Positions 8,957-44,368 of a stretch of DNA of 44,368 nucleotides are shown piece by piece. This DNA comes from a virus (lineage: Duplodnaviria > Heunggongvirae > Uroviricota > Caudoviricetes): IMG/VR virus record IMGVR_UViG_2541047889_000001. One strand, 5' to 3'. The position numbers were made by a program, and so were the translations under genes. The notes beneath the pieces are model-generated. The model saw only the letters and a list, made by a program, of their open reading frames with translations. It searched no databases and had not been told where the DNA came from. Position 1 is the stretch's first letter. Every line of letters begins with the position of its first letter.

Positions 8957-9285
8957 CAGTTCACCACCTGTTCAAACTCTGCGCTGAACTCAACACGCAG
9001 CATACTGACCCGCGACGACCATTTTGCGCAGGTCACCTTTATCTGCCGCCACTCATAAGGCGGCGTCCACAGAAAGGATTTCCAGCCCCCGTGCTCTTCC
9101 AGAAACGACTCCAGTACCGTGGCCTCCTCACGGGGGACAGAAAGCGTCACGCTGTACGTTTTCAGGTTGGCATTCAGCCCGGCAGGCGCTCGCTGAGAAT
9201 AGCCATCACCAAAGCGCACCTTTCTTACAGAAGGGACCGAAGCCACATCCATACCGGGTTTCACTTTCCAGCGGAAGGTCTTCAT
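8956..9285 (-). CDS. M: Tail tip protein M
   Basis: 109 aa, MKTFRWKVKPGMDVASVPSVRKVRFGDGYSQRAPAGLNANLK...; matches lambda gpM from memory. Confidence 0.93.
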   Translation of the reverse strand: MKTFRWKVKPGMDVASVPSVRKVRFGDGYSQRAPAGLNANLKTYSVTLSVPREEATVLESFLEEHGGWKSFLWTPPYEWRQIKVTCAKWSSRVSMLRVEFSAEFEQVVN

Positions 9286-11843
9286 CGTCCACCTCCGGAG
9301 AACAGGCCACCATCACGCATCTGTGTCTGAATTTCATCACGGGCACCCTTGCGGGCCATGTCATACACCGCCTTCAGAGCAGCCGGACCTATCTGCCCGT
9401 TCGTGCCGTCGTTGTTAATCACCACATGGTTATTCTGCTCAAACGTCCCGGACGCCTGCGACCGGCTGTCTGCCATGCTGCCCGGTGTACCGACATAACC
9501 GCCGGTGGCATAGCCGCGCATCAGCCGGTAAAGATTCCCCACGCCAATCCGGCTGGTTGCCTCCTTCGTGAAGACAAACTCACCACGGTGAACAATCCCC
9601 GCTGGCTCATATTTGCCGCCGGTTCCCGTAAATCCTCCGGTTGCAAAATGGAATTTCGCCGCAGCGGCCTGAATGGCTGTACCGCCTGACGCGGATGCGC
9701 CGCCACCAACAGCCCCGCCAATGGCGCTGCCGATACTCCCGACAATCCCCACCATTGCCTGCTTAAGCAGAATTTCTGTCATCATGGACAGCACGGAACG
9801 GGTGAAGCTGCGCCAGTTCTGCTCACTGCCGGTCAGCATCGCCGCCATATTCTGTGCAATACCATCAAAGGTCTGCGTGGCTGCACTTTTTACCTGCGAC
9901 ATACTGTCCGTGGCGCTCTCTTCCCACTCACTCCAGCCGGACTTCAGGCCTGCCATCCAGTTCCCGCGAAGCTGGTCTTCAGCCGCCCAGGTCTTTTTCT
10001 GCTCTGACATGACGTTATTCAGCGCCAGCGGATTATCGCCATACTGTTCCTTCAGGCGCTGTTCCGTGGCTTCCCGTTCTGCCTGCCGGTCAGTCAGCCC
10101 CCGGCTTTTCGCATCAATGGCGGCCCGTTTTGCCCGTTGCTGCTGTGCGAATTTATCCGCCTGCTGCGCCAGCGCGTTCAGGCGCTCCTGATACGTAACC
10201 TTGTCGCCAAGTGCAGCCAGCTGGCGTTTGTACTCCAGCGTCTCATCTTTATGCGCCAGCAGGGATTTCTCCTGTGCAGACAGCTGGCGACGTTGCGCCG
10301 CCTCCTCCAGTACCGCGAACTGACTCTCCGCCTTCCACAAATCCCGGCGCTGCTGGCTGATTTTCTCATTTGCTCCGGCATGCTTCTCCAGCGTCCGGAG
10401 TTCAGCCTGAAGCGTCAGCAGGGCAGCATGAGCACTGTCTTCCTGACGATCGCCCGCAGACACCTTCACGCCGGACTGCTTCGGCTTTTTCAGTGTCGTT
10501 TCATAGTCCTTTTTCGCTGCCGCCATCAGCGTGTTGTAATCTGCCTGCAGGATTTTTCCGTCTTTCAGGGCCTTATTCAGTTCTTCCTGACGGGCGGCAT
10601 ATTTCTCCAGCGGCGTCTGCAGCCGTTCGTAAGCCTTCTGCGCCTCTTCGGTATATTTCAGCCGTGACGCTTCGGTATCGCTCTGCTGCTGCGCATTTTT
10701 GTCCTGTTGACTCTGCTGTTCAGCCTTCTTTCGGGCGGCTTCAAGCGCAAGACGGGCCTTTTCACGATCATCCCAGTAACGCGCCCGCGCTTCATCGTTA
10801 ACAAAATAATCATCCTTGCGCAGATTCCAGATGTCGTCTGCTTTCTTAAACGCAGCCTCTGCCTTAATCAGCATCTCCTGCGCGGTATCAGGACGACCAA
10901 TATCCAGCACCGCATCCCACATGGATTTGAATGCCCGCGCAGTCCTGTCTGCCCAGGTCTCCAGCGTGCCCATGTTCTCTTTCAGGCGGCGGGTCTGGTC
11001 ATCAAACCCTTTCGTTGCGGCCTCGTTCGCTGCCTGCAATGCCCCGGCCTCATCGCCGGAACGCTGCAACTGAGCAACATACGCAATTTGCTCCGCCGTC
11101 ACGTTATGGAACTGGCGCGCCATCGCCGTCAGCCCCGACGTCGGGTCAGTGGTCAGCTTCCCGAAGGCTTCAGCGACCTTGTCCACCTCCACGCCGGATG
11201 CAGAGGAGAAACGCGCCACACTCTGGCTGATGGACGCAATCTGAGCCTCACCGCTTACCCCCGCCTTAACCAGTGCACTGAGTGACTCGCTGGTCTGGTT
11301 AAACGTCAGCCCTGCCGCCTGCCCGGCTCTGGACAGGACCAGCATACGATCTGCCGTCAGACCCGACTGATTACCGGAAAGGACCAGCGTTTTGTTGAAA
11401 TCGGACAGGGTTGAGTTACCCTGATACCAGGCATACGCCAGCGCACCGGTCGCCACCGCCAGCGAGGTGGCCCCGACCATCGGCAGGGTGATCGCACCGG
11501 CAAGCCCCCGGAACATGGGGATCATCCCGCCGAAGGAGTCCTTAACCTGACCACCCTGTTGCAGCAGGATCAGCCACGGACTTTGCCCGCCTGCAAGCTG
11601 CGTGGCCACGTCGGTGAACTGCGCAGGCAGCATACGCATGGCAGCTTTATACTGCCCGACGGAAATCCCCGCTTTCTGTGCAGCCAGCGCCTGCCGGTTC
11701 ATCGACTGTTCAACGACTGCCGCTGTTTTTTTCGCATCAGTTTCCGTACCGGAAAAATGACGCCTGACTCTGGCCATCTGCTCGTCAAATCTGGCCGCAT
11801 CCAGACTTAAATCAACGACCAGATCGCCTACCGGTTCAGCCAT
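9282..11843 (-). CDS. H: Tail tape measure protein H
   Basis: 853 aa, the same length as lambda gpH; coiled-coil Ala/Gln/Glu-rich centre and Gly-rich C-terminal segment. Confidence 0.93.
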   Translation of the reverse strand: MAEPVGDLVVDLSLDAARFDEQMARVRRHFSGTETDAKKTAAVVEQSMNRQALAAQKAGISVGQYKAAMRMLPAQFTDVATQLAGGQSPWLILLQQGGQVKDSFGGMIPMFRGLAGAITLPMVGATSLAVATGALAYAWYQGNSTLSDFNKTLVLSGNQSGLTADRMLVLSRAGQAAGLTFNQTSESLSALVKAGVSGEAQIASISQSVARFSSASGVEVDKVAEAFGKLTTDPTSGLTAMARQFHNVTAEQIAYVAQLQRSGDEAGALQAANEAATKGFDDQTRRLKENMGTLETWADRTARAFKSMWDAVLDIGRPDTAQEMLIKAEAAFKKADDIWNLRKDDYFVNDEARARYWDDREKARLALEAARKKAEQQSQQDKNAQQQSDTEASRLKYTEEAQKAYERLQTPLEKYAARQEELNKALKDGKILQADYNTLMAAAKKDYETTLKKPKQSGVKVSAGDRQEDSAHAALLTLQAELRTLEKHAGANEKISQQRRDLWKAESQFAVLEEAAQRRQLSAQEKSLLAHKDETLEYKRQLAALGDKVTYQERLNALAQQADKFAQQQRAKRAAIDAKSRGLTDRQAEREATEQRLKEQYGDNPLALNNVMSEQKKTWAAEDQLRGNWMAGLKSGWSEWEESATDSMSQVKSAATQTFDGIAQNMAAMLTGSEQNWRSFTRSVLSMMTEILLKQAMVGIVGSIGSAIGGAVGGGASASGGTAIQAAAAKFHFATGGFTGTGGKYEPAGIVHRGEFVFTKEATSRIGVGNLYRLMRGYATGGYVGTPGSMADSRSQASGTFEQNNHVVINNDGTNGQIGPAALKAVYDMARKGARDEIQTQMRDGGLFSGGGR

Positions 11844-12270
11844 ACCGGACTCCTCCTGCGATCCCTTCTGATACTGTCATCAGCATTACGTCATCCTCCG
11901 TCATGCCCGTCACATCCGGGGAAGCGGGGATAACTTCATTCCCGTCCGGGTCAAAGCGGACGCCTCCGGCAAGCCCTGCCGCTTTCTGCATCAGCACATC
12001 ATCTTCAGGCTCTTCGTCAGCCTCACGCCGGTTCAGCAGACTGAAATCCAGCGGATGCATATCCGGATCGCTGAAAAACAGGCTGAGTACGGTGTACGTC
12101 AGCCCGGAAAAGTGCATATCCAGCAGAACATCATGAAAATAGTGGGTACTGTAAAAGCGGTGCCAGTCGGCATACTCCGTGGATGACATCCCGGCAAGCA
12201 TGGCGCGCCAGTCGGGTCGCCCCATCTCACGCGCCAGTTTCAGGGCAAAACTCAGCTCACCGTCGAACAC
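11836..12270 (-). CDS. T: T frame of the tail assembly chaperone; expressed only as a G-T fusion by -1 frameshift
   Basis: The ...FDGELSFALKLAREMGRPDWRAMLAGMSSTEYADWHRFY... frame matches lambda T from memory. It has no independent ATG; the track's first codon is a GTG just downstream of the slippery heptamer. Confidence 0.85.
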   Translation of the reverse strand: MFDGELSFALKLAREMGRPDWRAMLAGMSSTEYADWHRFYSTHYFHDVLLDMHFSGLTYTVLSLFFSDPDMHPLDFSLLNRREADEEPEDDVLMQKAAGLAGGVRFDPDGNEVIPASPDVTGMTEDDVMLMTVSEGIAGGVRYG

Positions 12271-12674
12271 TTTCCCGCAGAAACAGGCTCTGCAGGCCCG
12301 GCGTCCTCTGCCTGTTCAGGGGCATTATTCACCACAAACTCAGACATACCGGACAGCCGGTACACCACGTTTTCAGCATGAGAAATTGCCTCTGTGGGCC
12401 AGGTGGTAAGCACTTCCTGCTCAATCTGTTTAACGGCCTCATTCATGGACGGCATCTGCGTCTTCTTCGGATGGTTATGCCACAGGGACATCGCCACCAC
12501 AAAAGCACCGGTTCTGATGACGTCTTCCACAGTAACCTGCCGGTTGCTGTCTGACTCCGCCTGTTCTGCCTGCCGTTTCATCAGGGCAAGATGCTCAATA
12601 CGCTGCAGGGCTGACAGTTCAGAAAGCGTGACGGTCACGCCGTTATGTTCAAATGATTCGGTTTTCAGGAACAT
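12252..12674 (-). CDS. G: Tail assembly chaperone G
   Basis: 140 aa, MFLKTESFEHNGVTVTLSELSALQRIEHLALMKRQAEQ...SAGKCSTVS; matches lambda gpG from memory. Confidence 0.93.
   Translation of the reverse strand: MFLKTESFEHNGVTVTLSELSALQRIEHLALMKRQAEQAESDSNRQVTVEDVIRTGAFVVAMSLWHNHPKKTQMPSMNEAVKQIEQEVLTTWPTEAISHAENVVYRLSGMSEFVVNNAPEQAEDAGPAEPVSAGKCSTVS
12270..12276 (-). other. Programmed -1 ribosomal frameshift slippery heptamer G_GGA_AAG (G to G-T)
   Basis: Minus-strand GGGAAAG (plus strand ctttccc at 12270..12276) sits in the G frame as G GGA AAG, six codons before the G stop; shifting -1 continues into the T frame (…GK VFDGELSFAL…). Confidence 0.85.
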
Positions 12675-12689
12675 CGCTGACTCTCCGGA

Positions 12690-13430
12690 TTAACTGGCGG
12701 TGACGGTGATTTCTGCAACCGCAGCAAACTCACCATTACCGGATACAACCGGAATGTTGACCCTGCCTGCAGCAACGCCGTTCACGGTGATGGTCATACC
12801 ACTGACCGACACGGTGGCTTTTGTTTTATCCGCAGACACCGCACGGAAGCTCTTGTCGGTTGCGCCTTCCGGCTGGAATGCCACGGTCAGCGTCGTGCTC
12901 TGCCCTTTCACCACCGAGGTGCTGGCAGGCGTCACGGTCATGCCGGTTGCCGCTGTGACCGTGCTGCGATCTTCTGCCATCGACGGGCGTCCCACATTGG
13001 TGACCTTCACCGTGCGGGTGATCACTTCCTTCGCCGTCACCGCTTTACCGATACTGCTGACCCAGCCACGGAACACATCGACCGTGCCGTTCGGGAAGCG
13101 GATTTTATAGGCACGGGTATCACCTTCATTAAACCACGCCAGCAGCGCCTGCTGCCCCTGTTCTCCGGGCATCCACGCCAGCGTGAAGCTGGTATCTCCG
13201 GCTGATTTCTGCCCCTGCCCGGTCGCAGTCCAGTCCGCATCTTCATCATCGAGATAGCTGTCGTCATAGGACTCAGCGGTCAGTTCGCCGGGCGTCAGGT
13301 CTTTAACTTTTGCCAGACGCGACCAGTCCACGTCTGAAAGCGGGTTCGCATAAGGGTCACCGTTCCCCTTATAAACCCACAGTGTGGTCCCGGCACCTTT
13401 CACCGGCATTGTAGGATTTGGTACAGGCAT
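12690..13430 (-). CDS. V: Major tail tube protein V
   Basis: Start at ATG 13430 ([22 protein letters not shown]...) with a GAGGA Shine-Dalgarno; matches lambda gpV from memory including the C-terminal Ig-like domain. Confidence 0.93.
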
Positions 13431-29300: not shown

Positions 29301-29463
29301 GATTCCTCCTTGCTGCCAGTCGCAACCATTTTTTATCAACCAGGCTGGCGGTATATCCGAGCAGAGTTGGTATTTCGGATGGCTTCAGCTCAGGTTTACG
29401 CTTACGACGATTTGGTACTTTGTAGATGTGTCCGTTCATGACACGAATAAGCGGTGTAGCCAT
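29293..29463 (-). CDS. ninE: NinE
   Basis: Not in the ORF track (56 aa). Translated by hand: [56 protein letters not shown]. Its ATG overlaps the ninB stop and its stop overlaps the ybcO start. Matches NinE from memory. Confidence 0.75.
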   Translation of the reverse strand: MATPLIRVMNGHIYKVPNRRKRKPELKPSEIPTLLGYTASLVDKKWLRLAARRNHG

Positions 29464-29918
29464 TACGCCTCCTGCTTGTCGCGCAGCAGCTGGAACTCGC
29501 AGCTCTGCGGAATAGTCAGGTGGCAGCCAATATTCATCGCCCAGGCTTCAACCTTACACAGGAAGACATACATCTCTCCGGTATCAAGATCGGAGGTATG
29601 GCGTAACGACTGGATAGTAGTGATTTCGCCGGTTACGACATCAACCAGGTCCTTGGTTTCATAACCGAGGTATGTGTGTTTGAGAGCATCTTTTACCCAT
29701 GCTGCGGTAGCGAACGATTTCCCCCTGCTGATGAGGTATTCACTGATTTCGCTGTACCACATATGGCTGAGTGCATTCTGGGAAAGACTGCGTTTCTCAC
29801 GCCACGGTTTAAGCACCATGCGAAAGCATTTTCCGTCCTCCAGATAAGGCTGGATCTGCTGGCCGATAGCGATGAAGTTACCGCGATGCAGTTTGATGCC
29901 ATCTTGTGGTAGGTTCAC
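29463..29918 (-). CDS. ninB: NinB-family recombination protein (YbcN-like)
   Basis: 151 aa, [62 protein letters not shown]...; matches DLP12 YbcN from memory. Confidence 0.8.
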
Positions 29919-30365
29919 GCTTCACCTCCACAGAGGTCAGACGCTGGATGCAAAAAAACGCAGGTGCATTTCTGCATCTGTGAAGGGAGAAGAGAGTTTG
30001 GATTGTGTGTGCGCATAAACGTCCCCGTTTAGCGCAGAAGTCACCGGAGTTGTTCAGGCTCCGGTGATACAATTATGGCGAATTGATTATTCATAATCAA
30101 ACAAGATAAGGTCTCAAACTTCATGCAAGCCAAGATTTATTTCTGACAGAATTATACAAAGAAGCTATTGGTCAGAATCTACTCGGACTGTAAAACATAC
30201 GCATAACCTTAAGCTCTCACTTTAAGCATTGTTGAAATAATAGCCGTCAAGTACAACCTTAACCACGACTGGGATATTTCTCTGGCTACCACGAGTTGTA
30301 CGGCTATTAAACTGCCGTTAAATTCAGTAAGAGAATTTCATCCGATAAGTCAAGGCATGTAAAAC

Positions 30366-31409
30366 ATGAAAATTAACAAGATATTATCATCTGCAACACT
30401 ATTGTATGGTATGTCAATGGCCATGTCGGTCGGGAGTTGTGCAACACCTGTCCAGACTAATCTTCCTGGTTACACCCCGGGTGCAGATATCATTAGTGTT
30501 TCACCGACCAGAAACCAGGTCGATCTCATTGGTGATGTTGTTTATTCCCAGATAAAAGGAACTCGTTCTGTCAGACAGCTTCACATGTCAGTTCTTGTCC
30601 CGCGAACAAATGATTTAAAACCAGCCATTATTTATTATCCCGGCGGCGGATTCATGTCTTCTGAACATGACAAATTTATTGAAATGAGAATGGCTCTGGC
30701 AGAAGCTGGTTTTGTTGTGGCCGCTGTAGAATACAGAACAATTCCTGATACATTTCCAGCACCAGTTGAGGATGGAAAAGCTGCAATACGTTACCTGAGA
30801 GAGCATGCCAGCAATTATGGGATTGATCCTCAAAGAATCGGAGTTCTGGGTGACTCTGCCGGTGGATGGCTTGCCCAGATGATGGGAACTACAAATGGTG
30901 ACAAAACCTTTGATAAAGGTGACTTTCTTCAGCAATCCTCAGATGTTCAGGCAGTTGCCACACTTTATGGGATTTCTGACTTGTTGAATATTGGCGAGGG
31001 GTTCCCTGAATCAGTGCAGGAGGTTCATCGCTCTCCTGCCGTAACCGAAGCCTTAATGATCAATGGCCCTGCATTCAGAAATTTTGCGGGAGCCCCCATC
31101 ACAGCGTCAAAAGAAAAAGCGCTAAACGCCAGTCCAATCGGACATATGAAAGGAGTAAAACCCCCATTTCTTATTATGCATGGTAGCAAAGACACTCTGG
31201 TTTCACCTGAGCAAAGCGCCAAACTATTCAGGATGTTGAAGAAGAACGGTGATAACGCTGAGTACGTGCTGGTAGAAGGGGCCGAGCATGGCGATAATAC
31301 ATGGTATCAGCCAATTATTATAAACAGAGTTGTTGAGTGGTTTACTAAAAACCTGGGAACCCCCATAAAAAACGCTACCCAACAACAAAAAACAAACGCT
31401 GACCTGTAA
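30366..31409 (+). CDS. Lipoprotein alpha/beta-hydrolase-fold esterase/lipase
   Basis: 347 aa; lipoprotein-type signal MKINKILSSATLLYGMSMAMSVGSC; oxyanion-hole motif YYPGGGF and nucleophile elbow GDSAGG. Flanked by AT-rich DNA and opposite in orientation to the surrounding operon. Confidence 0.75.
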   Translation: MKINKILSSATLLYGMSMAMSVGSCATPVQTNLPGYTPGADIISVSPTRNQVDLIGDVVYSQIKGTRSVRQLHMSVLVPRTNDLKPAIIYYPGGGFMSSEHDKFIEMRMALAEAGFVVAAVEYRTIPDTFPAPVEDGKAAIRYLREHASNYGIDPQRIGVLGDSAGGWLAQMMGTTNGDKTFDKGDFLQQSSDVQAVATLYGISDLLNIGEGFPESVQEVHRSPAVTEALMINGPAFRNFAGAPITASKEKALNASPIGHMKGVKPPFLIMHGSKDTLVSPEQSAKLFRMLKKNGDNAEYVLVEGAEHGDNTWYQPIIINRVVEWFTKNLGTPIKNATQQQKTNADL

Positions 31410-31415
31410 AAAGCA

Positions 31416-31433
31416 GCCCGCACTTATGCGGGC
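31416..31433 (+). terminator. Hairpin downstream of the esterase gene (weak terminator)
   Basis: gcccgca-ctta-tgcgggc immediately after the esterase stop; no strong T-tract on the plus strand. Confidence 0.35.
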
Positions 31434-31758
31434 TAACCTATTTCACTCGATTCAAAAGAAATTATTTTTAATGGGGGCGTGACCAGCCTCTCGGTGCTCA
31501 GATACTTAATGAAGTGGAGTGGCATTCTGGCAAGAGGTTAACATCACCTGTTCGCCATAACCAAGCACGTGCACAAAGTTTGTTATCAGTGAATTGTTTT
31601 GTGATTGGGTATTGTTGAGCTACTAGAGCAAGAATGCCAACATCCAGTGACAGTGCCTATAGTAAAACTATAGCTCAGGGCGCTTCGTTCAAGATAGTTA
31701 ATATCATATTAGTTACTTTACTTTCATACCATAGCACGGTTGAAAAAGTGATTATTAC

Positions 31759-33285
31759 TCAAAAATAAACCTCACCATCAACCATATATTTAAGAGTACT
31801 TATCGCCTGCTGGGCGGATATTACTTTCATTAAAGGATAGTGTTTAAAAACAATGCCATTCATAAAATAGATATCACAGGTTTTATTATCTGTATTAATT
31901 ATAATTTTTTCGAATATTTTATAGGCAAGTGTACGACATAGCTCTCGCCCATTTTTACTGGTTAAATCAATAGCATGAAAATCACCAAGTGAACTCACCC
32001 CTTTACTCTTCAAAGTTTTTAATGATACCGAAGCCCTTCGTAATTCCTTATCTAATAGTCTTATTTTCTCTGCTATAGCGGTAACTTCAGGCGCGACAGA
32101 CAATGCAACGATTAAATTATTAATTTTCATCTGAAGCTCAATAATTTTTAACTCTAAAGTTTCATTAGCATCTTTCTTGTTTTCAACTGGTTGAATTTTG
32201 CTACAATTAAAAAGCAATTCATTAATGATATTATAATCAACCAAATCTCTTTTTATTGATGGCCTGTCACATCGATGTAATCTTCTCATCGGACAAACAT
32301 AATAGCCATGCAAACGTCCAGATACCGCATGAACAATCATGGTATTACCACAAGCCTCACACTTCATAACTGTTCGAAGTAGATTTATTAGCATAGGATT
32401 CTTGCTACTATTGCTAATACCAAAAGGTGCCAACCGAATTTCCTGTACAGCGTAAAACAAATCATCTGATATGACTCTGGGATAATAGCCAGCGATTTCA
32501 CTTATCCCTTTCCCTCTTGCACGATATGAAGGTACGCATATACCTATCAGAGCTTTATTCGCTAATAATTTTTCAATTACAGAAGGCCCCCATGCACTTT
32601 CTTTTCCTGAAAAATTTTTTACAGCATGATCATTTAAATACTTAGCTATTGCATTCAATGATCGCCTTTCCATCCTGAGTTTAAAAATTAGCTCAATCGT
32701 TTTCACCCTGTCGGGGTCTGGAATAAAAGCTGTTCTTTTGTCATCCAATGAGAGCCATCTCGGACAAGACGCCGTCATAATCGTGCCTGATTCCAGTGCA
32801 TCCTGCCGTTTTTTCTTCCATGATAATTTAACCCGACTTGACTTTATCTCGCTTTCTTCATTTGCCCTTTGTGCTATAAGTATGGCTTTTATTAATGAAT
32901 ATGGCTCATTCAATGAGTCTATATTATAGACTGTATTATCGCAAAGAGTTATAACATCAATACCGTGATTCAAAATCAATTTCAGACGCTCAATCGCTTC
33001 ACCGACTTTTTCTCTTGAAAGTCTGTCCAGACTTTCAACTAACAATGTAGTCCCTGGCAATATGTAACCATGTTCTATAGCATCTAAAAATTCCGAAAAA
33101 GCTCCTGATTGTGCATGCTTTCCATTGAATGCGCTTAACCCCAAATCTTCATACGTTACGGTATCAAGGTAATAATCACTATTTACCTTTAGCCATTCAG
33201 TAATAAGCCTTCTCTGGCGGTTTAATGAATCACCAGACATCTGACCTGGTGATGAAAATCGCATATATGCTATGGCTTTTTTCAT
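31759..33285 (-). CDS. Large serine recombinase (resolvase/invertase catalytic domain plus recombinase and zinc-ribbon domains), DLP12 YbcK-like
   Basis: 508 aa; N-terminal AIAYMRFSSPGQ...SLNRQRR catalytic-serine motif; Cys-rich CEACGN...YYVCP...HRC region; coiled-coil C-terminus. Flanked by AT-rich DNA. Confidence 0.85.
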   Translation of the reverse strand: MKKAIAYMRFSSPGQMSGDSLNRQRRLITEWLKVNSDYYLDTVTYEDLGLSAFNGKHAQSGAFSEFLDAIEHGYILPGTTLLVESLDRLSREKVGEAIERLKLILNHGIDVITLCDNTVYNIDSLNEPYSLIKAILIAQRANEESEIKSSRVKLSWKKKRQDALESGTIMTASCPRWLSLDDKRTAFIPDPDRVKTIELIFKLRMERRSLNAIAKYLNDHAVKNFSGKESAWGPSVIEKLLANKALIGICVPSYRARGKGISEIAGYYPRVISDDLFYAVQEIRLAPFGISNSSKNPMLINLLRTVMKCEACGNTMIVHAVSGRLHGYYVCPMRRLHRCDRPSIKRDLVDYNIINELLFNCSKIQPVENKKDANETLELKIIELQMKINNLIVALSVAPEVTAIAEKIRLLDKELRRASVSLKTLKSKGVSSLGDFHAIDLTSKNGRELCRTLAYKIFEKIIINTDNKTCDIYFMNGIVFKHYPLMKVISAQQAISTLKYMVDGEVYF

Positions 33286-33540
33286 GGTGACACCTGCTAA
33301 AGTATGCTTTTATAAACCTTAGTGGTGAGATATGATTTTTGTTTAATTTTTATTTAAAAAGACAATTAAGGTCACATTATCTTGAATATACAACAATAAT
33401 CGTATTGCAATTTTCTTACACCATGATCTTGAAAGATCAAAAGAATGAATAAAAACTAAAGACATTAACAAAAAGCATAAAACGAGGCCCATACAAATAT
33501 ACGAACCTCCATATTTTAGTCGTTTAAAAATAAATTATTT

Positions 33541-33873
33541 TTAATGTGGTGTGCTTCGTGACAATAAATTAATAACCAACACACCGGCACAAATCAACAT
33601 CATGCCTATAATGGCTGGCAGGTCCAACCGTTGGCCGAAAAATCCCCATGATAGTAAGCTAATCAGGACAATACCGACTCCTGACCAGATAGCATAAGCA
33701 ATCCCTGTAGGTATATAAGCCAGCGTCTGAGCTAATAACCAGAATGATGCACAATAACAAATAATTGTACCAACAGATGGCCATAACCGTGTAAAACCTT
33801 CTGAAAACTTCATTAAGGTTGTACCAATGACCTCTGCAAGTATTGCACCACCAAGATAAATATAAGGGTTCAT
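33541..33873 (-). CDS. emrE: Small multidrug resistance efflux protein EmrE
   Basis: Start at ATG 33873 (MNPYIYLGGAILAEVIGTTLMKFSEGFTRLWPSVGTIICYCASFWLLAQTLAYIPTGIAYAIWSG...) with AGGAAAG upstream; near-identical to E. coli EmrE from memory. Confidence 0.92.
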   Translation of the reverse strand: MNPYIYLGGAILAEVIGTTLMKFSEGFTRLWPSVGTIICYCASFWLLAQTLAYIPTGIAYAIWSGVGIVLISLLSWGFFGQRLDLPAIIGMMLICAGVLVINLLSRSTPH

Positions 33874-33940
33874 AGCATATTCTTTCCTGTTCAAACTGGA
33901 GAGAATTGTACTACAGTTTGAACTCAACTCACCTGTTTCA

Positions 33941-34243
33941 TCATTGTGTACCCATTGATGTTCTTTTATATACCCTCAATACCCGTTTCATCGCGGCACT
34001 CTGGCGACACTCCTTAAAAATCAAATTCGCGCTCACCTTTCCTTCCCGTTCTTCTCTGGTAGCGAACCGATAATACACCGTTCGCCAGACCTTACCATCA
34101 ACGACCAGGATTCCTGCCCGCGCCATTTTAGCCACAGCCTGATTTATGCTGGTTACGGTTGCGCCTGTTACCGCGGCAACGTCCTGTGCACAGAAGCTCT
34201 TATGCGTCCCCAGGTAATGAATAATTGCCTCTTTGCCCGTCAT
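33941..34243 (-). CDS. ren: Ren protein
   Basis: 100 aa, MTGKEAIIHYLGTHKSFCAQDVAAVTGATVTSINQAVAKMARAGILVVDGKVWRTVYYRFATREEREGK...; matches lambda Ren from memory. ATG overlaps the P stop (ATGA). Confidence 0.88.
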   Translation of the reverse strand: MTGKEAIIHYLGTHKSFCAQDVAAVTGATVTSINQAVAKMARAGILVVDGKVWRTVYYRFATREEREGKVSANLIFKECRQSAAMKRVLRVYKRTSMGTQ

Positions 34244-34941
34244 ACACTTGCTCCTTTCAGTCCGAACTTAGCTTTGATTTCTGCGATCTTCGCCAGAGCC
34301 TGTGCACGATTTAGAGGTCTACCGCCCATGACAGGAAGTTGTTTTACTGGTTCAGGGATCGCCTCACCACGGTTAATTCTCGCAGTCATATGGACAAGCT
34401 CATCTGCGGCCTTACGGCGTAATTCCGCATCAGTAAGCGCATTGGCCCGCATGTTCTGATACAGGTTGGTAACCAGCCAGTAGTGCGCGTTTGATTTCCA
34501 CGGATAAGACTCCGCATCCGGATACAGGCCTCGCTTCCGGCAATACTCGTAAACCATATCAACCAGCTCGCTGACGTTTGGCAGTCCGGCGATAACGGAT
34601 GCTTCTTCCCGGCACCATGCAACAAACTGCCCGGGTGATGGCAGAAATGGTCGATTCTGCCGACGGGCTACGCGCATTCCTGCGTTAACCTGTTCCATTG
34701 TGGTGATCCCGTTTTCCCGGAAAGCCAGAACCCACTGGCGGCGGATTTCATTCAGTTCGTTCTGGTCACGGTTAGCCAGACTCGCCGGGAAAGTTGCCAG
34801 TAACTGGCTGAACACACCGTTGATGATCTGCGCTACCTGCTGTACCTGCGGCTTTTCGTCGTACTGTTCCGGCATGTTGTTGGCGATCCGGCGCATCTGC
34901 TCACGGTCAAAGTTAACCATCTGTGCGGCGATGTTTTTCAT
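34240..34941 (-). CDS. P: Replication protein P (DnaB helicase loader)
   Basis: 233 aa, MKNIAAQMVNFDREQMRRIANNMPEQYDEKPQVQQVAQIINGVFSQLLATFPASLANRDQNE...; matches lambda gpP from memory. Confidence 0.95.
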   Translation of the reverse strand: MKNIAAQMVNFDREQMRRIANNMPEQYDEKPQVQQVAQIINGVFSQLLATFPASLANRDQNELNEIRRQWVLAFRENGITTMEQVNAGMRVARRQNRPFLPSPGQFVAWCREEASVIAGLPNVSELVDMVYEYCRKRGLYPDAESYPWKSNAHYWLVTNLYQNMRANALTDAELRRKAADELVHMTARINRGEAIPEPVKQLPVMGGRPLNRAQALAKIAEIKAKFGLKGASV

Positions 34942-35915
34942 AAATCCACCCCGTAAATCCAGTCAGTGTTTGTCAGGTCGAGTTTTGATTTTCCGGCTGT
35001 CACGCCAGCCTGTTGCTTGTTACGGTTGATTTCGAGTTGAGTCCACTTGTCGCGGAGTTTGGCCGGACTCAGCACGTTACCGGACCAGAAGTTGTCCTGG
35101 CATGCCCAGCGGAACAGCACGCACATGTCGCGGTGGTTACGTCCGTCACGTTCACGCATCAGGCGGATATCGTTAGCCCACCCTGCAAAATTTGGTTTTC
35201 TGGCTGATGGCGCGATGGTCTTCACCATGTCAAACATCCACTCTGCGGCGGTCAGGTCTTCTGCTGTCCCCCACTTGCTGCCGCTCTGAATTGCAGCATC
35301 CGGTTTCACCACAGGAAGATCGTTTTCTGGCTGGTCAGAGGATTCGTCAGAATTCTCGGACGAAAAAGGTTTTATATTGTCTTTTGTTAGTTTGTCTTTT
35401 GTGTTTACCTGATTCGGGTAAACGCCTTTACCTGATTTGGGTAAACTTTTCTTACCTGATTCAGGTAAATTTACCTCTTTCAGGTAAACTTTATTTTTCT
35501 TACCTGATTCAGGTAAATTTACCTCTTTCAGGTAAACTTTATTTTTCTTACCTGATTCGGGTAATGTTGACCATTCACTGACCACATTATTAATGCCGAT
35601 ATTCCGCCCGCTCTGAATAAAAATCCCACGCTTTACCAGAACACTTTTTGCAGCAGAACACTTGTGCGGCAATATCCCGGTCAACTCGGAAAGTTGCTCG
35701 TTGCTCACCCAATCCAGTTTTTTATTAAAGCCATATGTTTTGCGCATGACAGCCAGGAAGACCAGAAGCTGGTGCTGTGTTAATCCGGCCAGCATCACAG
35801 CTTCCAGCAACTCATTTGCAATGCGCGTATAACCATCATCGAGATCTGCCACGCGCGGCTCCTTTTGTGCCACATCCGGCACTGGAAAATTGAATATCTC
35901 AGCAGTGTTTGCCAT
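34938..35915 (-). CDS. O: Replication initiator O: non-lambda N-terminal iteron-binding domain, lambda-like C-terminal domain
   Basis: Start placed at ATG 35915 (MANTAEIFNFPVPD...) with a strong GGGAGG upstream; an alternative start is ATG 36005, which overlaps the upstream stop. The C-terminal half matches lambda O from memory; the ori iterons lie inside the gene. Confidence 0.88.
   Translation of the reverse strand: MANTAEIFNFPVPDVAQKEPRVADLDDGYTRIANELLEAVMLAGLTQHQLLVFLAVMRKTYGFNKKLDWVSNEQLSELTGILPHKCSAAKSVLVKRGIFIQSGRNIGINNVVSEWSTLPESGKKNKVYLKEVNLPESGKKNKVYLKEVNLPESGKKSLPKSGKGVYPNQVNTKDKLTKDNIKPFSSENSDESSDQPENDLPVVKPDAAIQSGSKWGTAEDLTAAEWMFDMVKTIAPSARKPNFAGWANDIRLMRERDGRNHRDMCVLFRWACQDNFWSGNVLSPAKLRDKWTQLEINRNKQQAGVTAGKSKLDLTNTDWIYGVDL
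35405..35565. repeat. Replication origin iterons (seven 18-bp TTACCTGATTCRGGTAAA-like repeats) within O, including a 48-bp perfect tandem duplication
   Basis: Repeats at 35405, 35428, 35452, 35471, 35500, 35519 and 35548, five with clear dyad symmetry (TACCTGA / TCAGGTA). Units 35452..35499 and 35500..35547 are identical. An AT-rich tract follows at about 35335..35404. Confidence 0.8.
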
Positions 35916-36001
35916 AATTCCTCCCGCAATGAGTGTGTTACGATTTGCACCTGAAAGTCGGTTCTGTTCGCGCAGACCGGCTTTCGCCATTTCCGAACCT
36001 G

Positions 36002-36547
36002 TCATATTGCCCCCAGCATGGTGGTGACCATCGCCATCAGTGGACCAGCCAGATCCGGGTCCACACGAAACATCGACACAATGCCTTCACTCATCTCCTT
36101 CAGTTTCTGGTGGCGTGGTGCGTTGAGAATGACAGCCTGTTTTGCCTCACTGAGTTCCTTTTCCATTTCAGCCAGCCGAGCCATGAAGCTATCCTGCTCA
36201 ACCAGGTGGCCGCGATATTCCAGCGGTAGTACCGCCAGAATTGCCGGGGTCAGTTCACGCACGTTATTTCGGTATTTTTCAGAATCGAATTTGTTATCGA
36301 GGAAGCGGAACAGCTTCTGGCGTGCACGGCTGACATCATCAGGAAAATCGATGGTGCCGCCGCCCTGCTCCCGATACTCATTCACAATGAGTGCGGCAAC
36401 AACATCCTGATTATCTGCAGCCGACCAGGCGCGAACGGCATCACGGATTTTTTCGTGGCCTGGCGCCTGTTTTGTTTGAGAACGATTTATCACCGCAGTC
36501 GGGCTAAATCCGCTAGTCTGTTGGTATGTAAGTGGTTGCATAGTCAT
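36002..36547 (-). CDS. YdaT-like protein in the cII position (Rac-type regulator)
   Basis: 181 aa; segments NEYREQGGGTIDFP and RNNVRELTPAILAVLPLEYRGHL resemble Rac YdaT as remembered. Stop overlaps the upstream ATG at 36005. Confidence 0.55.
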   Translation of the reverse strand: MTMQPLTYQQTSGFSPTAVINRSQTKQAPGHEKIRDAVRAWSAADNQDVVAALIVNEYREQGGGTIDFPDDVSRARQKLFRFLDNKFDSEKYRNNVRELTPAILAVLPLEYRGHLVEQDSFMARLAEMEKELSEAKQAVILNAPRHQKLKEMSEGIVSMFRVDPDLAGPLMAMVTTMLGAI

Positions 36548-37602: not shown

Positions 37603-37682
37603 TACCAATTAAAAATTATCAACCGGGCATTGTGCTCATTCAGTAAAACAACTTAATTATTCATTTTAGAATGGAGAACTTA

Positions 37683-38744
37683 ATGGATACTTTAAAATAT
37701 GAGAAATTCTCTGATTTTGATCACAATGACCCATTTTTTGACTCTTTAAAAAAAGATTATAAAGAGTTTCCTCTTTGGTTAGAAAAAAAAGCCAGAGAAG
37801 GAGAATCAGCTTATGTGCTCTATGATGACAAGCATAAAATCGAAGGTTTTATGTATCTAAAAGAAAATGATGATGCAAATGACATTAATCCAGCGCTCCC
37901 ACCAGGACGTCATCTAAAGATAGGAACATTCAAATTTGAATCTAAAGGCACCCTTCGCGGACAACGATTTCTAAAAAAAGCGTTTGACCATGCATTTTCA
38001 TCAAAATCTGATGATATTTATGTTACTGTTTTCGACAAACACGTCCATCTAATAAAACTTTTCCAAACGTACGGATTTTACATTCATGGTGAAAAAGAAA
38101 CACATAACGGGAAAGAGTTTGTATATGCGAGGTCTTTGCATGAGCCTTATGGTGATATTTTATTAGATTACCCTCGAATAATGACATCAAGGGCCAACAA
38201 ATATTTACTGGCGATTTATCCCGAATATCACACTAGACTATTCCCTGATTCAAAACTTGTAAATGAATCACCAGATATTGTCAAAGATATATCCCATGCT
38301 AACAGCATTCATAAAATTTACATATGTGGAATGCGTTCTGTGATGGGAATGAAAAGAGGAGATATCATTGTCATCTATAGAACCGGAGACAAAAAAGGGC
38401 CAGCTCGCTATCGTTCTGTAGCCAGTACATTATGTGTAGTTGAGAGCGTAAAAAATATTTCTGAATTTTTAAGCGAAGATAGTTTTGTAGACTATTGTAT
38501 TCGTTTTAGCGTATTTTCTGAAGATGAACTCAGAAAAATCTATAAAGAACGTCGATACCCTTTCATTATAAGATTCACATACAATCTGTCTTTGTCAAAG
38601 AGACCCAATCGTGCTATTTTAATAGATCATGTGGGGCTAAATGGTTCGCGTGCATTCCGATGGAGTCACTTTAAACTCACAAATGAGCAGTTCTTAAAGA
38701 TCATCGAGTTAGGCAAGATAAATGAAAGTTTTATTATCCATTAA
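37683..38744 (+). CDS. Hypothetical two-domain protein: N-terminal GNAT-like acetyltransferase fold, C-terminal PUA-like/unknown domain
   Basis: AT-rich gene immediately downstream of cI. ATG 37683 is preceded by GGAG; the track starts at ATG 37671, which has no Shine-Dalgarno. GNAT-like motifs LRGQRFLKKAF and LIKLFQTYGFYIHGE. Domain assignment is by eye only. Confidence 0.6.
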   Translation: MDTLKYEKFSDFDHNDPFFDSLKKDYKEFPLWLEKKAREGESAYVLYDDKHKIEGFMYLKENDDANDINPALPPGRHLKIGTFKFESKGTLRGQRFLKKAFDHAFSSKSDDIYVTVFDKHVHLIKLFQTYGFYIHGEKETHNGKEFVYARSLHEPYGDILLDYPRIMTSRANKYLLAIYPEYHTRLFPDSKLVNESPDIVKDISHANSIHKIYICGMRSVMGMKRGDIIVIYRTGDKKGPARYRSVASTLCVVESVKNISEFLSEDSFVDYCIRFSVFSEDELRKIYKERRYPFIIRFTYNLSLSKRPNRAILIDHVGLNGSRAFRWSHFKLTNEQFLKIIELGKINESFIIH

Positions 38745-39099
38745 GCCTGAGTTTGCAGAAAAAATATTGAACGGAACAAAGCGGTTCGAGTTTCGTAAAG
38801 GTATATTCAAAAATCCGCAAATTAGCACCGTTGTTATTTATGCCACGATGCCATTAGGTAAAGTTGTTGGTCAATTCCGTATTGAATCAATACTAAGTGA
38901 CGAACCGGAATCTCTTTGGAAAAAGACGGAAAAACACGCAGGTATTTCTAAGCAATTTTATGACTCATATTATTCAGGTAGAGAAAAGGCCTACGCAATA
39001 AAAATTGGTGAAGTGGAAAGATATAAAGAACCAATTCCTATCTCTGCTCTAGGTAGTAATATTAAGCCACCACAATCATATCTTTACCTACCTGCGTAA
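38722..39099 (+). CDS. ASCH-domain protein (PUA-like)
   Basis: 125 aa, MKVLLSIKPEFAEKILNGTKRFEFRKG...; canonical ASCH N-terminal pattern. Overlaps the upstream gene by 23 nt; AT-rich. Confidence 0.65.
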   Translation: MKVLLSIKPEFAEKILNGTKRFEFRKGIFKNPQISTVVIYATMPLGKVVGQFRIESILSDEPESLWKKTEKHAGISKQFYDSYYSGREKAYAIKIGEVERYKEPIPISALGSNIKPPQSYLYLPA

Positions 39100-42999: not shown

Positions 43000-43236
43000 A
43001 TGTCTCGACTAATCACTTTACAGGACTGGGCTAAAGAAGAATTTGGGGACTTAGCACCAAGTGAGCGAGTTCTGAAAAAATACGCGCAAGGGAAAATGAT
43101 GGCCCCACCCGCTATAAAAGTTGGTCGCTACTGGATGATTGACCGAAATTCCCGTTTTGTAGGAACGCTTGCAGAACCGCAACTCCCAATAAACGCAAAC
43201 CCAAAACTCCAACGGATAATCGCTGATGGCTGCTAG
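43000..43236 (+). CDS. xis: Excisionase-like protein
   Basis: 78 aa; ATG preceded by AGGAGG; directly upstream of and overlapping int. Pattern LITLQDWAKEEF...VGRYWMIDRNSRF resembles lambda Xis (LTLQEWNARQ...). Confidence 0.6.
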   Translation: MSRLITLQDWAKEEFGDLAPSERVLKKYAQGKMMAPPAIKVGRYWMIDRNSRFVGTLAEPQLPINANPKLQRIIADGC

Positions 43237-44368
43237 ACCCCGATCTCACAAAATCTCTATACCCAATTTATATTGCAAATTAGATAAGCGAACCGGAAAG
43301 GTATATTGGCAATACAAACATCCACTATCCGGTCGTTTTCATAGCTTAGGAACTGATGAGAATGAAGCAAAACAAGTTGCTACTGAAGCAAATACCATTA
43401 TTGCTGAACAACGTACCCGACAAATATTAAGCGTCAATGAGCGTCTGGAAAGAATGAAAGGCAGGCGCTCAGACATTACGGTGACAGAATGGCTTGATAA
43501 ATATATTTCTATCCAGGAGGACAGGCTGCAACATAATGAACTAAGACCCAACTCCTATCGGCAAAAAGGCAAACCCATTCGTCTTTTCCGTGAGCATTGT
43601 GGAATGCAACACCTCAAGGATATTACCGCACTTGATATTGCCGAAATAATTGATGCTGTAAAGGCTGAAGGTCATAACAGGATGGCGCAAGTCGTGAGAA
43701 TGGTGTTAATCGACGTCTTCAAAGAAGCACAACACGCAGGACATGTTCCGCCAGGATTTAACCCAGCGCAGGCAACAAAACAACCGCGAAATCGAGTAAA
43801 CCGCCAAAGATTATCACTGCCCGAATGGCAGGCAATATTTGACAGCGTAAGCAGACGGCAGCCCTATTTAAAATGCGGGATGCTACTTGCTCTTGTCACT
43901 GGACAACGTTTAGGCGATATCTGCAATTTGAAATTCTCTGATATCTGGGACGACATGTTGCACATTACTCAGGAAAAAACCGGTTCAAAACTTGCTATTC
44001 CGCTTAACCTGAAATGCGATGCTCTGAATATTACCCTTCGTGAAGTTATATCTCAGTGCAGGGATGCTGTTGTTAGTAAATATCTGGTCCATTACCGTCA
44101 CACAACCTCTCAAGCAAACAGAGGAGACCAGGTTTCTGCGAATACTCTGACAACGGCTTTTAAAAAGGCCAGGGAAAAATGTGGCATAAAATGGGAGCAA
44201 GGAACTGCGCCCACATTTCATGAGCAGCGATCTCTGTCAGAACGGTTATATCGGGAACAGGGTCTGGATACGCAAAAGTTGTTAGGCCATAAATCCAGAA
44301 AAATGACCGACCGATACAATGATGATCGTGGTAAAGACTGGATTATCGTAGATATCAAAACAGCATAG
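43226..44368 (+). CDS. int: Tyrosine-type site-specific integrase
   Basis: 380 aa; C-terminal catalytic region with ALVTGQRLGDI, HEQRSLSERLY and GHKSRKMTDRY. The stop codon TAG is the last three bases of the window. Confidence 0.9.
   Translation: MAARPRSHKISIPNLYCKLDKRTGKVYWQYKHPLSGRFHSLGTDENEAKQVATEANTIIAEQRTRQILSVNERLERMKGRRSDITVTEWLDKYISIQEDRLQHNELRPNSYRQKGKPIRLFREHCGMQHLKDITALDIAEIIDAVKAEGHNRMAQVVRMVLIDVFKEAQHAGHVPPGFNPAQATKQPRNRVNRQRLSLPEWQAIFDSVSRRQPYLKCGMLLALVTGQRLGDICNLKFSDIWDDMLHITQEKTGSKLAIPLNLKCDALNITLREVISQCRDAVVSKYLVHYRHTTSQANRGDQVSANTLTTAFKKAREKCGIKWEQGTAPTFHEQRSLSERLYREQGLDTQKLLGHKSRKMTDRYNDDRGKDWIIVDIKTA

Follow-up and report, generated by a model that had tools for sequence, protein, structure and literature searches.

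Why does a lambdoid prophage that has a tyrosine integrase of its own also carry a large serine recombinase (LSR), and on which DNA does that second enzyme act? The question is raised by a virus record of IMG/VR (IMGVR_UViG_2541047889_000001), a stretch of 44,368 nucleotides that we refer to as a whole as the window, in which ybcK, encoding a 508-aa LSR with catalytic residue S11 and three Pfam domains (31759..33285, minus strand), lies behind the efflux gene emrE. We found that ybcK and the small gene ylcJ are bracketed by 38-nt direct repeats, and that natural alleles without ybcK have exactly the structure expected from recombination between these repeats. At a probability of roughly 35%, we read the repeats as att-like sites of YbcK, which would have inserted the ylcJ–ybcK block at a core by the emrE stop codon. 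As part of the same reading, ybcK would encode a complete and still-functional LSR that is accessory cargo behind emrE, the enzyme that integrates the prophage being Int with Xis.

Except for about 1.5 kb next to the repressor, the window is 99.8–100% identical over its whole length to Escherichia phage Perceval (OV696612; LF82 prophage 2, at icd), of which it is a near-identical variant, and its ren–ninB region is 100% identical to several complete Escherichia coli genomes and 99.9–100% identical to LF82. Perceval is a complete lambdoid genome for which spontaneous induction in LF82 has been reported. The prophage lies at icd; its sets of head and tail genes are complete, it encodes Bet and Exo, and it carries at its icd-proximal end the recombinase pair Xis (43000–43236, plus strand) and a lambda-type tyrosine integrase (43226–44368, plus strand; Arm-DNA-bind_1 2e-28, Phage_integrase 9e-24). 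The minus-strand gene order is O–P–ren–emrE–ylcJ–ybcK, followed by an opposite-strand hydrolase gene and then by ylcH–ybcN(ninB)–ninE–ybcO–rusA–ylcG–quuD.

An initial annotation of this DNA, made from its letters alone, had recognized the 508-aa LSR, emrE, their co-orientation with early-right transcription and the tyrosine integrase at the prophage end, and our analysis bears out each of these calls. O, P, ren, emrE, ybcK and the nin genes all lie on the minus strand, and emrE occupies 33541..33873 (minus strand; a 110-aa SMR efflux pump, Multi_Drug_Res PF00893, 2e-35), the end at 33927 given previously being an upstream TTG start in the same frame. The view of YbcK as a second, mechanistically distinct recombinase beside the Int/Xis pair is likewise borne out, and we found no paper that assigns it a target. 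Two points needed correction: the position between ren and the nin genes is right, but ylcJ and the opposite-strand hydrolase gene in that interval had been overlooked, and the pair is not flanked by AT-rich DNA, because the region from 31600 to 34000 is itself AT-rich (27–42% GC) and both its sides have 49–56% GC.

YbcK has the hallmarks of a complete LSR. Its Pfam matches are Resolvase (PF00239, 8e-19, residues 4–161), Recombinase (PF07508, 2e-14) and Zn_ribbon_recom (PF13408, 5e-8). In an alignment of 18 family members from Enterobacterales (42–61% identity), R9, S11, D87, R88 and R91 are invariant, as are the zinc-ribbon cysteines C309, C312, C331 and C339; the gene is neither a pseudogene nor devoid of the catalytic serine, the two outcomes that the initial annotation had said would overturn its call. 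An AlphaFold model (pLDDT 79) places two paired long helices at residues 373–397 and 402–427, forming a coiled coil, and in Foldseek searches this model matched cryo-EM structures of serine integrases along its entire length (E 1e-17 for entries such as 9dxd), with Bxb1 at E 6e-15 and Bxb1 and phiC31 at around 1e-15. The sole sequence-level match came from a single-sequence HMMER search, in which residues 167–467 weakly matched the C-terminal domain of the A118 integrase; a profile search of PDB sequences gave no match. Taken together, the catalytic, Recombinase and zinc-ribbon domains, with the modelled coiled coil and overall fold, indicate that YbcK is a member of the LSR family. A small serine DNA invertase of the Pin/Gin/Hin kind (about 190 aa) is ruled out by the 508-aa length and the recombinase and zinc-ribbon domains. 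The gene is also maintained by purifying selection, the Perceval and DLP12 copies differing by 40 synonymous and 12 non-synonymous changes (dN/dS 0.08), and in lysogens its transcription does not depend on O and P.

That ybcK encodes a serine recombinase is already known, because GenBank annotates it as 'Large serine recombinase, DLP12 YbcK homolog'. The Perceval gene product of that name, PERCE_51, is 100% identical to the protein of the window and has the same ren–emrE–ybcK–hydrolase–ninB arrangement. Genes identical to the window ybcK also occur in phages 4A7, Lambda_4C10, D2, 1W, 3W and PhiR47_2, and among isolated phages eight carry the identical protein and four more a variant with 97–98% identity.

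What had been missing is a substrate, and the repeat search suggested in the initial annotation yielded a candidate pair. The two 38-nt direct repeats lie 2,073 nt apart and bracket ylcJ, ybcK, its non-coding tail and a fragment of rha. Copy B (33512..33549, minus strand), the candidate attL, overlaps the emrE stop codon and is present in all emrE–ybcK carriers examined; it holds a 15-nt core, CATTAAAAATAATTT, that is identical in the two copies, and a 21-bp palindrome, TTAAAAATAA-T-TTATTTTTAA. Copy A (31439..31476, minus strand), the candidate attR, matches copy B at 32 of 38 positions and is confined to the Perceval-type arrangement; the ACGCCCC in front of it resembles a shortened emrE 3′ end. 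The pair scores 26/30 against a shuffle maximum of 22, and the motif is found exactly twice in the 44-kb window (0 expected). Inverted repeats that could delimit an invertible segment around ybcK gave only weak AT-rich matches, the best of which (15/16 nt) is at chance level.

We then built in silico the junction that recombination within the core should leave behind, and searched for it. Eight ybcK-less alleles, from two complete genomes (F467 and Rb-50), four IMG/VR contigs and two metagenome contigs, consist of exactly emrE, the left part of copy B, the core, the right part of copy A, the terminator and the hydrolase gene, without ylcJ, ybcK or the rha fragment. On the emrE side they fall into two lineages, which differ by 3–4% from all emrE copies linked to ybcK. 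Given this divergence, they did not arise by recent deletion from any occupied allele in the sample, and we rejected that origin for all sampled genomes. The Perceval-type arrangement, and it alone, thus combines direct repeats at both ends of the block with an exact unoccupied allele, as a mini-element would. To the right of ybcK, DLP12 has only a weak remnant that resembles the emrE 3′ end (9 of 500 shuffles reach its score).

A survey of 5,426 complete E. coli genomes showed that the linkage of the two genes is one-way. ybcK is present in 1,424 of them, almost always joined to emrE, and 1,398 of these copies (98%) are essentially full length; the contiguous emrE–ylcJ–ybcK junction is found in 1,402 genomes, with a single left junction. 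By contrast, about 2,290 genomes have emrE without ybcK, and there the homology to the window stops at 33533, which is the end of the core. Most genomes with emrE alone carry a chromosomal remnant, fliE–emrE–ybcL–ybcM–porin–yedK, which is the DLP12 arrangement minus the block of about 2.1 kb. This provides a second occupied and unoccupied pair: emrE–ylcJ–ybcK–ybcL–ybcM in DLP12 versus emrE–ybcL–ybcM at the fliE locus. The chromosomal emrE between fliE and yedK (for example, at locus L122 of E. coli UPEC_U013, and in LF82) is 93% identical and sits in a tiny prophage remnant in these roughly 2,290 genomes, and many strains therefore have two emrE copies.

The resemblance to DLP12 that the initial annotation described is real, within limits. 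DLP12 of K-12 has the same order (renD–emrE–ylcJ–ybcK–…–ylcH–ybcN–ninE–ybcO–rusA–ylcG–quuD–nmpC–essD), its YbcK (b0544) has the same 508 aa with 98% protein identity, and ren to ybcK is 96.5% identical over 2,405 nt, the emrE stretch being 98% identical to K-12; in gene order and identity, the window holds an early-right accessory module of the DLP12 type. However, the part of the 44.4-kb window that can be aligned to DLP12 comes to only 9.1 kb, and DLP12 is defective and lies at argU with IntD, whereas the prophage of the window lies at icd with a different integrase and so is not DLP12 itself. The cargo after ybcK differs as well (ybcL–ybcM in DLP12, the hydrolase gene here), and DLP12 lacks repeat copy A. 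Because so little aligns, and because integrase, attachment site and post-ybcK cargo all differ, the relationship is modular, as is usual among lambdoid phages.

We propose that YbcK, by catalysing site-specific recombination, brought the ylcJ–ybcK block (about 2.1 kb) into the DNA that flanks emrE on its 3′ side. Strand exchange would take place within the AT-rich 15-bp core; because this core overlaps the stop codon of emrE, the gene would remain intact. Copy B would then be attL-like and copy A attR-like, and the emrE–core–terminator sequence of ybcK-less phages would be attB-like. The serine integrases of phiRv1 and SPbeta are reported to have common cores of 12–16 bp. In a Perceval-type phage, YbcK could still excise and re-insert its own 2,073-bp segment; in most lineages, including DLP12 and phage Turner, the right-hand site would have been lost or have decayed, fixing the block. 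A more specific form of the proposal, that YbcK is the integrase of a minimal insertion element of about 2.1 kb (ylcJ plus ybcK) that targets the palindromic emrE-stop core in lambdoid phages, is one that we regard as rather doubtful.

Known systems offer partial parallels. The integrases of Listeria A118 (LI Int), Bxb1 and phiC31 share with YbcK the four-part architecture of catalytic domain, recombinase domain, zinc ribbon and coiled coil and, as predicted, the fold, at a sequence identity of only 14–22%; each of them is encoded beside attP and serves its phage as the sole integrase, whereas ybcK is internal, its phage has Int and Xis, and its sites are candidates. TnpX (Tn4451), TndX (Tn5397) and CcrAB (SCCmec) are LSRs that excise and insert their own short element with short direct repeats at its ends, and the candidate 2,073-bp block with its 15-bp core would work in a similar way. 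Those elements have uniform ends, demonstrated circles and several sites, whereas the ybcK block has a non-uniform right end and one left junction. The tyrosine integrases of e14 and phage 21 integrate in the 3′ end of icd and supply a surrogate 3′ end from attP. Here, similarly, the target gene emrE remains whole, and its last nucleotides recur in diverged form at the distal end of the insert; unlike the icd case, the duplication is short (about 45 bp) and the enzyme is assigned by inference. Pin (from e14), PinQ and PinR resemble YbcK in their serine-recombinase catalytic domain and residence in E. coli prophages, but they are small enzymes that flip the DNA between two inverted repeats, and around ybcK no inverted repeats of significance were found.

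Several observations weigh against the proposal that YbcK inserted the block. The block has no uniform right end: the filler there is the rha fragment in the window and unalignable sequence in K-12 (homology between the two fillers is not significant), and the Turner-type and P0001-type arrangements are without any second repeat. At the joint between rha and the emrE 3′ end there is a GTC microhomology, which illegitimate recombination would explain without a recombinase; the shared left breakpoint, 8 nt past a stop codon, could be the plain edge of a conserved gene; and the phage's own Bet and Exo could recombine homologies of 40 bp. The attP-like and attB-like arms are 75–80% alike over about 45 bp, which is unusual for serine integrases, and no recombination directionality factor was identified. 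The junction predicted for a 2,073-bp circle (GGTCACGCCCC + core + ATTTTTAAACGACTAAAATA) was absent from viral and metagenome contigs, although assemblies are a weak test for circles, and the emrE at the fliE locus was occupied by ybcK in 0 of the 5,426 genomes, though LF82, for example, carries both loci. The circle-junction and fliE-locus searches thus gave no sign of present-day mobility of the block, and neither uniform ends nor more than one insertion site nor a circular intermediate was found. Finally, in a search for direct repeats flanking 21 homologues, none exceeded the shuffle range save two long duplications of backbone genes.

A possible alternative, which we consider nearly as likely, is that YbcK is an orphan integrase and owes its movement to the mosaicism common among phages. 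The block would have joined emrE once, and its flanks would later have been swapped by homologous (Red/RecA) and illegitimate recombination; copy A would be the by-product of one illegitimate joint between the rha of a ybcK phage and the emrE end of an emrE–hydrolase phage, and the real substrate of YbcK, if any, would lie elsewhere. The genomic context is favourable to this alternative, because ren and ninB enclose a hotspot for cargo genes: in every phage compared, homology to the backbone breaks off at 33977, within the 3′ end of ren, and is back at 30101, and at least six cargo sets share these outer boundaries, some of them recombinase-free. The cargo is emrE–ylcJ–ybcK–hydrolase here, emrE–ylcJ–ybcK–ybcL–ybcM in DLP12 and PhiR34_1, and emrE–ylcJ–ybcK–′rha–orf169 in Turner and many defective prophages; sets without a recombinase comprise PD-lambda-1 with Rha, an acyltransferase with a lipoprotein, Rha with small open reading frames (ORFs), and an inverse autotransporter with the hydrolase. 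Mosaicism would also account for the GTC microhomology at the joint between rha and the emrE remnant, the unalignable distal fillers and the type I arrangements without a second repeat; the phage encodes Bet and Exo, and no sign of current mobility was seen. Two homologous loci, from two other genera, point the same way, with long, diverged duplicates of backbone genes typical of mosaic joints. At locus L094 the recombinase block is bracketed by direct duplicates of the 5′ part of a DUF1367 gene (9671–9851 and 12651–12831; 181 nt, 86%), and at locus L031 by direct duplicates of replication gene P (9239–9681 and 12174–12616; about 440 nt, 72%). What mosaicism accommodates less easily is the precision of the joint, since a random event must fall within the last 12–25 nt or so of emrE to leave a duplication of only 38–45 bp. 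Furthermore, the weak remnant in K-12 DLP12 has the same GTCACG as its starting point, none of the sampled emrE alleles matches the 7 nt (ACGCCCC) that separate the core from rha-derived DNA, and the selection that maintains the enzyme is left unexplained.

That selection is the starting point of another, unlikely explanation, namely that YbcK acts in trans for the host or phage, perhaps by recombining or cutting sites in competing phages or mobile elements or as a switch at a distant host locus, its linkage to emrE being historical. Purifying selection has operated even inside the defective DLP12, and expression is autonomous and stress-responsive. In LF82 RNA sequencing data, ybcK rises from log2 3.2 in LB to 5.8 in macrophages (log2 fold change 3.65, q 5e-19, about 12-fold) while O and P stay flat at log2 2.3–3.0, so the expression of ybcK is separate from that of the lytic operon (PMC9928086, tables S1 and S4). 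In the same data, ren, emrE, ybcK, the hydrolase gene and ninB are all up in macrophages and O and P are at background, which points to a lysogen-active promoter somewhere downstream of P (PMC9928086). In K-12, a Rho/NusG-dependent terminator upstream of ybcK keeps the gene silent (PMC4150792), and in BL21(DE3) over-expression of ybcK raises, and its deletion lowers, tolerance to sabinene (PMC7181518). This terminator and the sabinene phenotype were all that our literature search on ybcK returned. The phenotype comes without a mechanism and may be a polar or over-expression effect. The neighbourhood would suit a role in trans, in that the slot holds defence genes such as PD-lambda-1 in sister phages, a SIR2 gene lies near one YbcK homologue, and cassettes of the family occupy accessory slots in many unrelated prophages, in plasmids and in a conjugative element. 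However, PADLOC gave no match for YbcK, EmrE, YlcJ or the hydrolase at E ≤ 0.01, and YbcK has neither known partner genes nor an identified site in trans.

It is far less probable that YbcK is a second integrase of the whole phage, giving Perceval an alternative chromosomal attachment site. The PHROG 95 family 'integrase' does match YbcK at 6e-120, and homologues in Atlantibacter, Yersinia, Erwinia and Ewingella lie at prophage ends after tail-fibre genes, one of them (Atlantibacter) 540 nt from the ssrA 3′ end. In every E. coli prophage examined, however, ybcK is internal and in the same order, with the tyrosine integrase at the end, and no permuted prophage with ybcK at a junction was seen among them; in the window, ybcK ends about 10 kb from the Int/Xis end, which is not the position of a prophage's own integrase. 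Other homologues also lie in the nin region of lambdoid prophages (Atlantibacter-like loci L094 and L016, and Pantoea locus L008, the latter also with a tyrosine integrase), and still others on plasmids and in a conjugative element. Even at prophage ends the arrangement is atypical. In Erwinia, the recombinase gene does not adjoin host DNA but has two other cargo genes in between, and in Ewingella a 1.94-kb block of the homologue plus orf67, a 67-aa ORF (L097:9993–11932, L018 and L019), is 88% identical in three unrelated flank contexts. Because of this placement, the YbcK family seems, from the loci compared, to behave as a discrete cassette in accessory slots and not as a standard phage integrase.

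Some further features of the homologues are worth recording. In the Ewingella block, the stop codon of the small ORF marks the exact limit of homology, and the flanks are unrelated on both sides. Conserved non-coding flanks among family members were absent beyond about 85 nt upstream, and these were within Atlantibacter. Beside homologues at prophage ends in three genera, on either side, lies a conserved gene pair (L004:9092–9684, L095:12207–12772 and L097:9212–9845) that encodes an 80-aa protein (55–58% identity) and a protein of 107–130 aa starting MGFPSPAADY, like pre-cleaved UmuD′.

Equally improbable is that ybcK is a functionless, decaying relic, a view to which its silence in LB, its residence in a cryptic prophage in K-12 and the lack of any activity reported in the literature might lead, because dN/dS is 0.08, 98% of copies are full length, the catalytic and zinc-binding residues are all invariant across homologues of 42–61% identity, and its DLP12 neighbours xisD, exoD, peaD, renD and nmpC are pseudogenes.

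The cargo interval of the window can be followed along the minus strand from ren (33941..34243; PHROG 142 Ren-like, 4e-41), the last backbone gene before the variable cargo. Between emrE and ybcK lies ylcJ (33343..33492, minus strand), which encodes a 49-aa small hydrophobic protein (PF23688 YlcJ, 2e-28). ybcK is followed by a non-coding tail of about 120 nt (31640..31758, minus strand) that is conserved, at lower identity, with DLP12 and phage Turner, so that the right edge of the conserved block falls at about 31640–31652. The rha fragment comes next (31481..31635, minus strand), a decayed internal piece of rha with the P22 antirepressor C-terminal domain that is 82% identical to the rha of PhiR5_1 and PhiR26_1 and has a 5-nt deletion. 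This 155-nt non-coding fragment directly follows the ybcK tail, and in related prophages the corresponding sequence runs into an intact 99-aa ORF and orf169. Beyond copy A, a GC-rich hairpin with a T run (31414..31435, minus strand) resembles an intrinsic terminator and is the element that directly follows emrE in the ybcK-less alleles. The separate opposite-strand cargo gene (30366..31409, plus strand) encodes an alpha/beta hydrolase of the BD-FAE esterase type; about 670 E. coli genomes have it, and in many of these its neighbour is the gene for an inverse autotransporter of 1,421 aa and not emrE–ybcK. The right edge of the variable cargo is at 30101 (minus strand), where backbone homology with all compared lambdoid phages resumes, and after it come ylcH (29915–30016, minus strand) and the first nin gene, ybcN (29463..29918, minus strand; NinB/Orf family). 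An Rfam scan of the region returned nothing.

Elsewhere, the window departs from Perceval at two places: the cargo beside the repressor (37671–39099) and one extra iteron unit in O. The former, on the plus strand, comprises genes for proteins of 357 aa and 125 aa (ASCH domain) that match the PADLOC candidate defence pair PDC-M11A/B (2e-133 and 7e-52) and lie directly after the CI-like repressor, in the rexAB position. It is the sole part of the window unaligned to LF82 and Perceval, and therefore represents a cargo swap at a second hotspot. The latter lies in the origin iteron array inside O (array 35447–35564; O 34938–36005), which has a 48-nt unit in 2.5 copies; O has 355 aa in the window and 339 aa in LF82, the difference being the one extra unit.

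About one in four complete E. coli genomes carries ybcK, which is among the few intact recombinase genes of K-12 to which no substrate has been assigned. The genome-wide counts of its linkage to emrE, the candidate substrate pair of about 40 bp and the natural ybcK-less alleles are new and make the question of its target testable. If mosaicism proves to be the explanation, the locus would still be a clear worked example of the lambdoid hotspot for cargo and defence genes between ren and ninB. If instead the core is the site of YbcK, E. coli would offer a serine integrase of its own that is orthogonal and has a short att site. The resident serine integrase of K-12 would then be a working enzyme whose defined att site measures about 40 bp, an unrecognized endogenous enzyme would be present in the strains that host serine-integrase circuits, and the spread of emrE-linked cargo among temperate phages would gain a mechanistic component.

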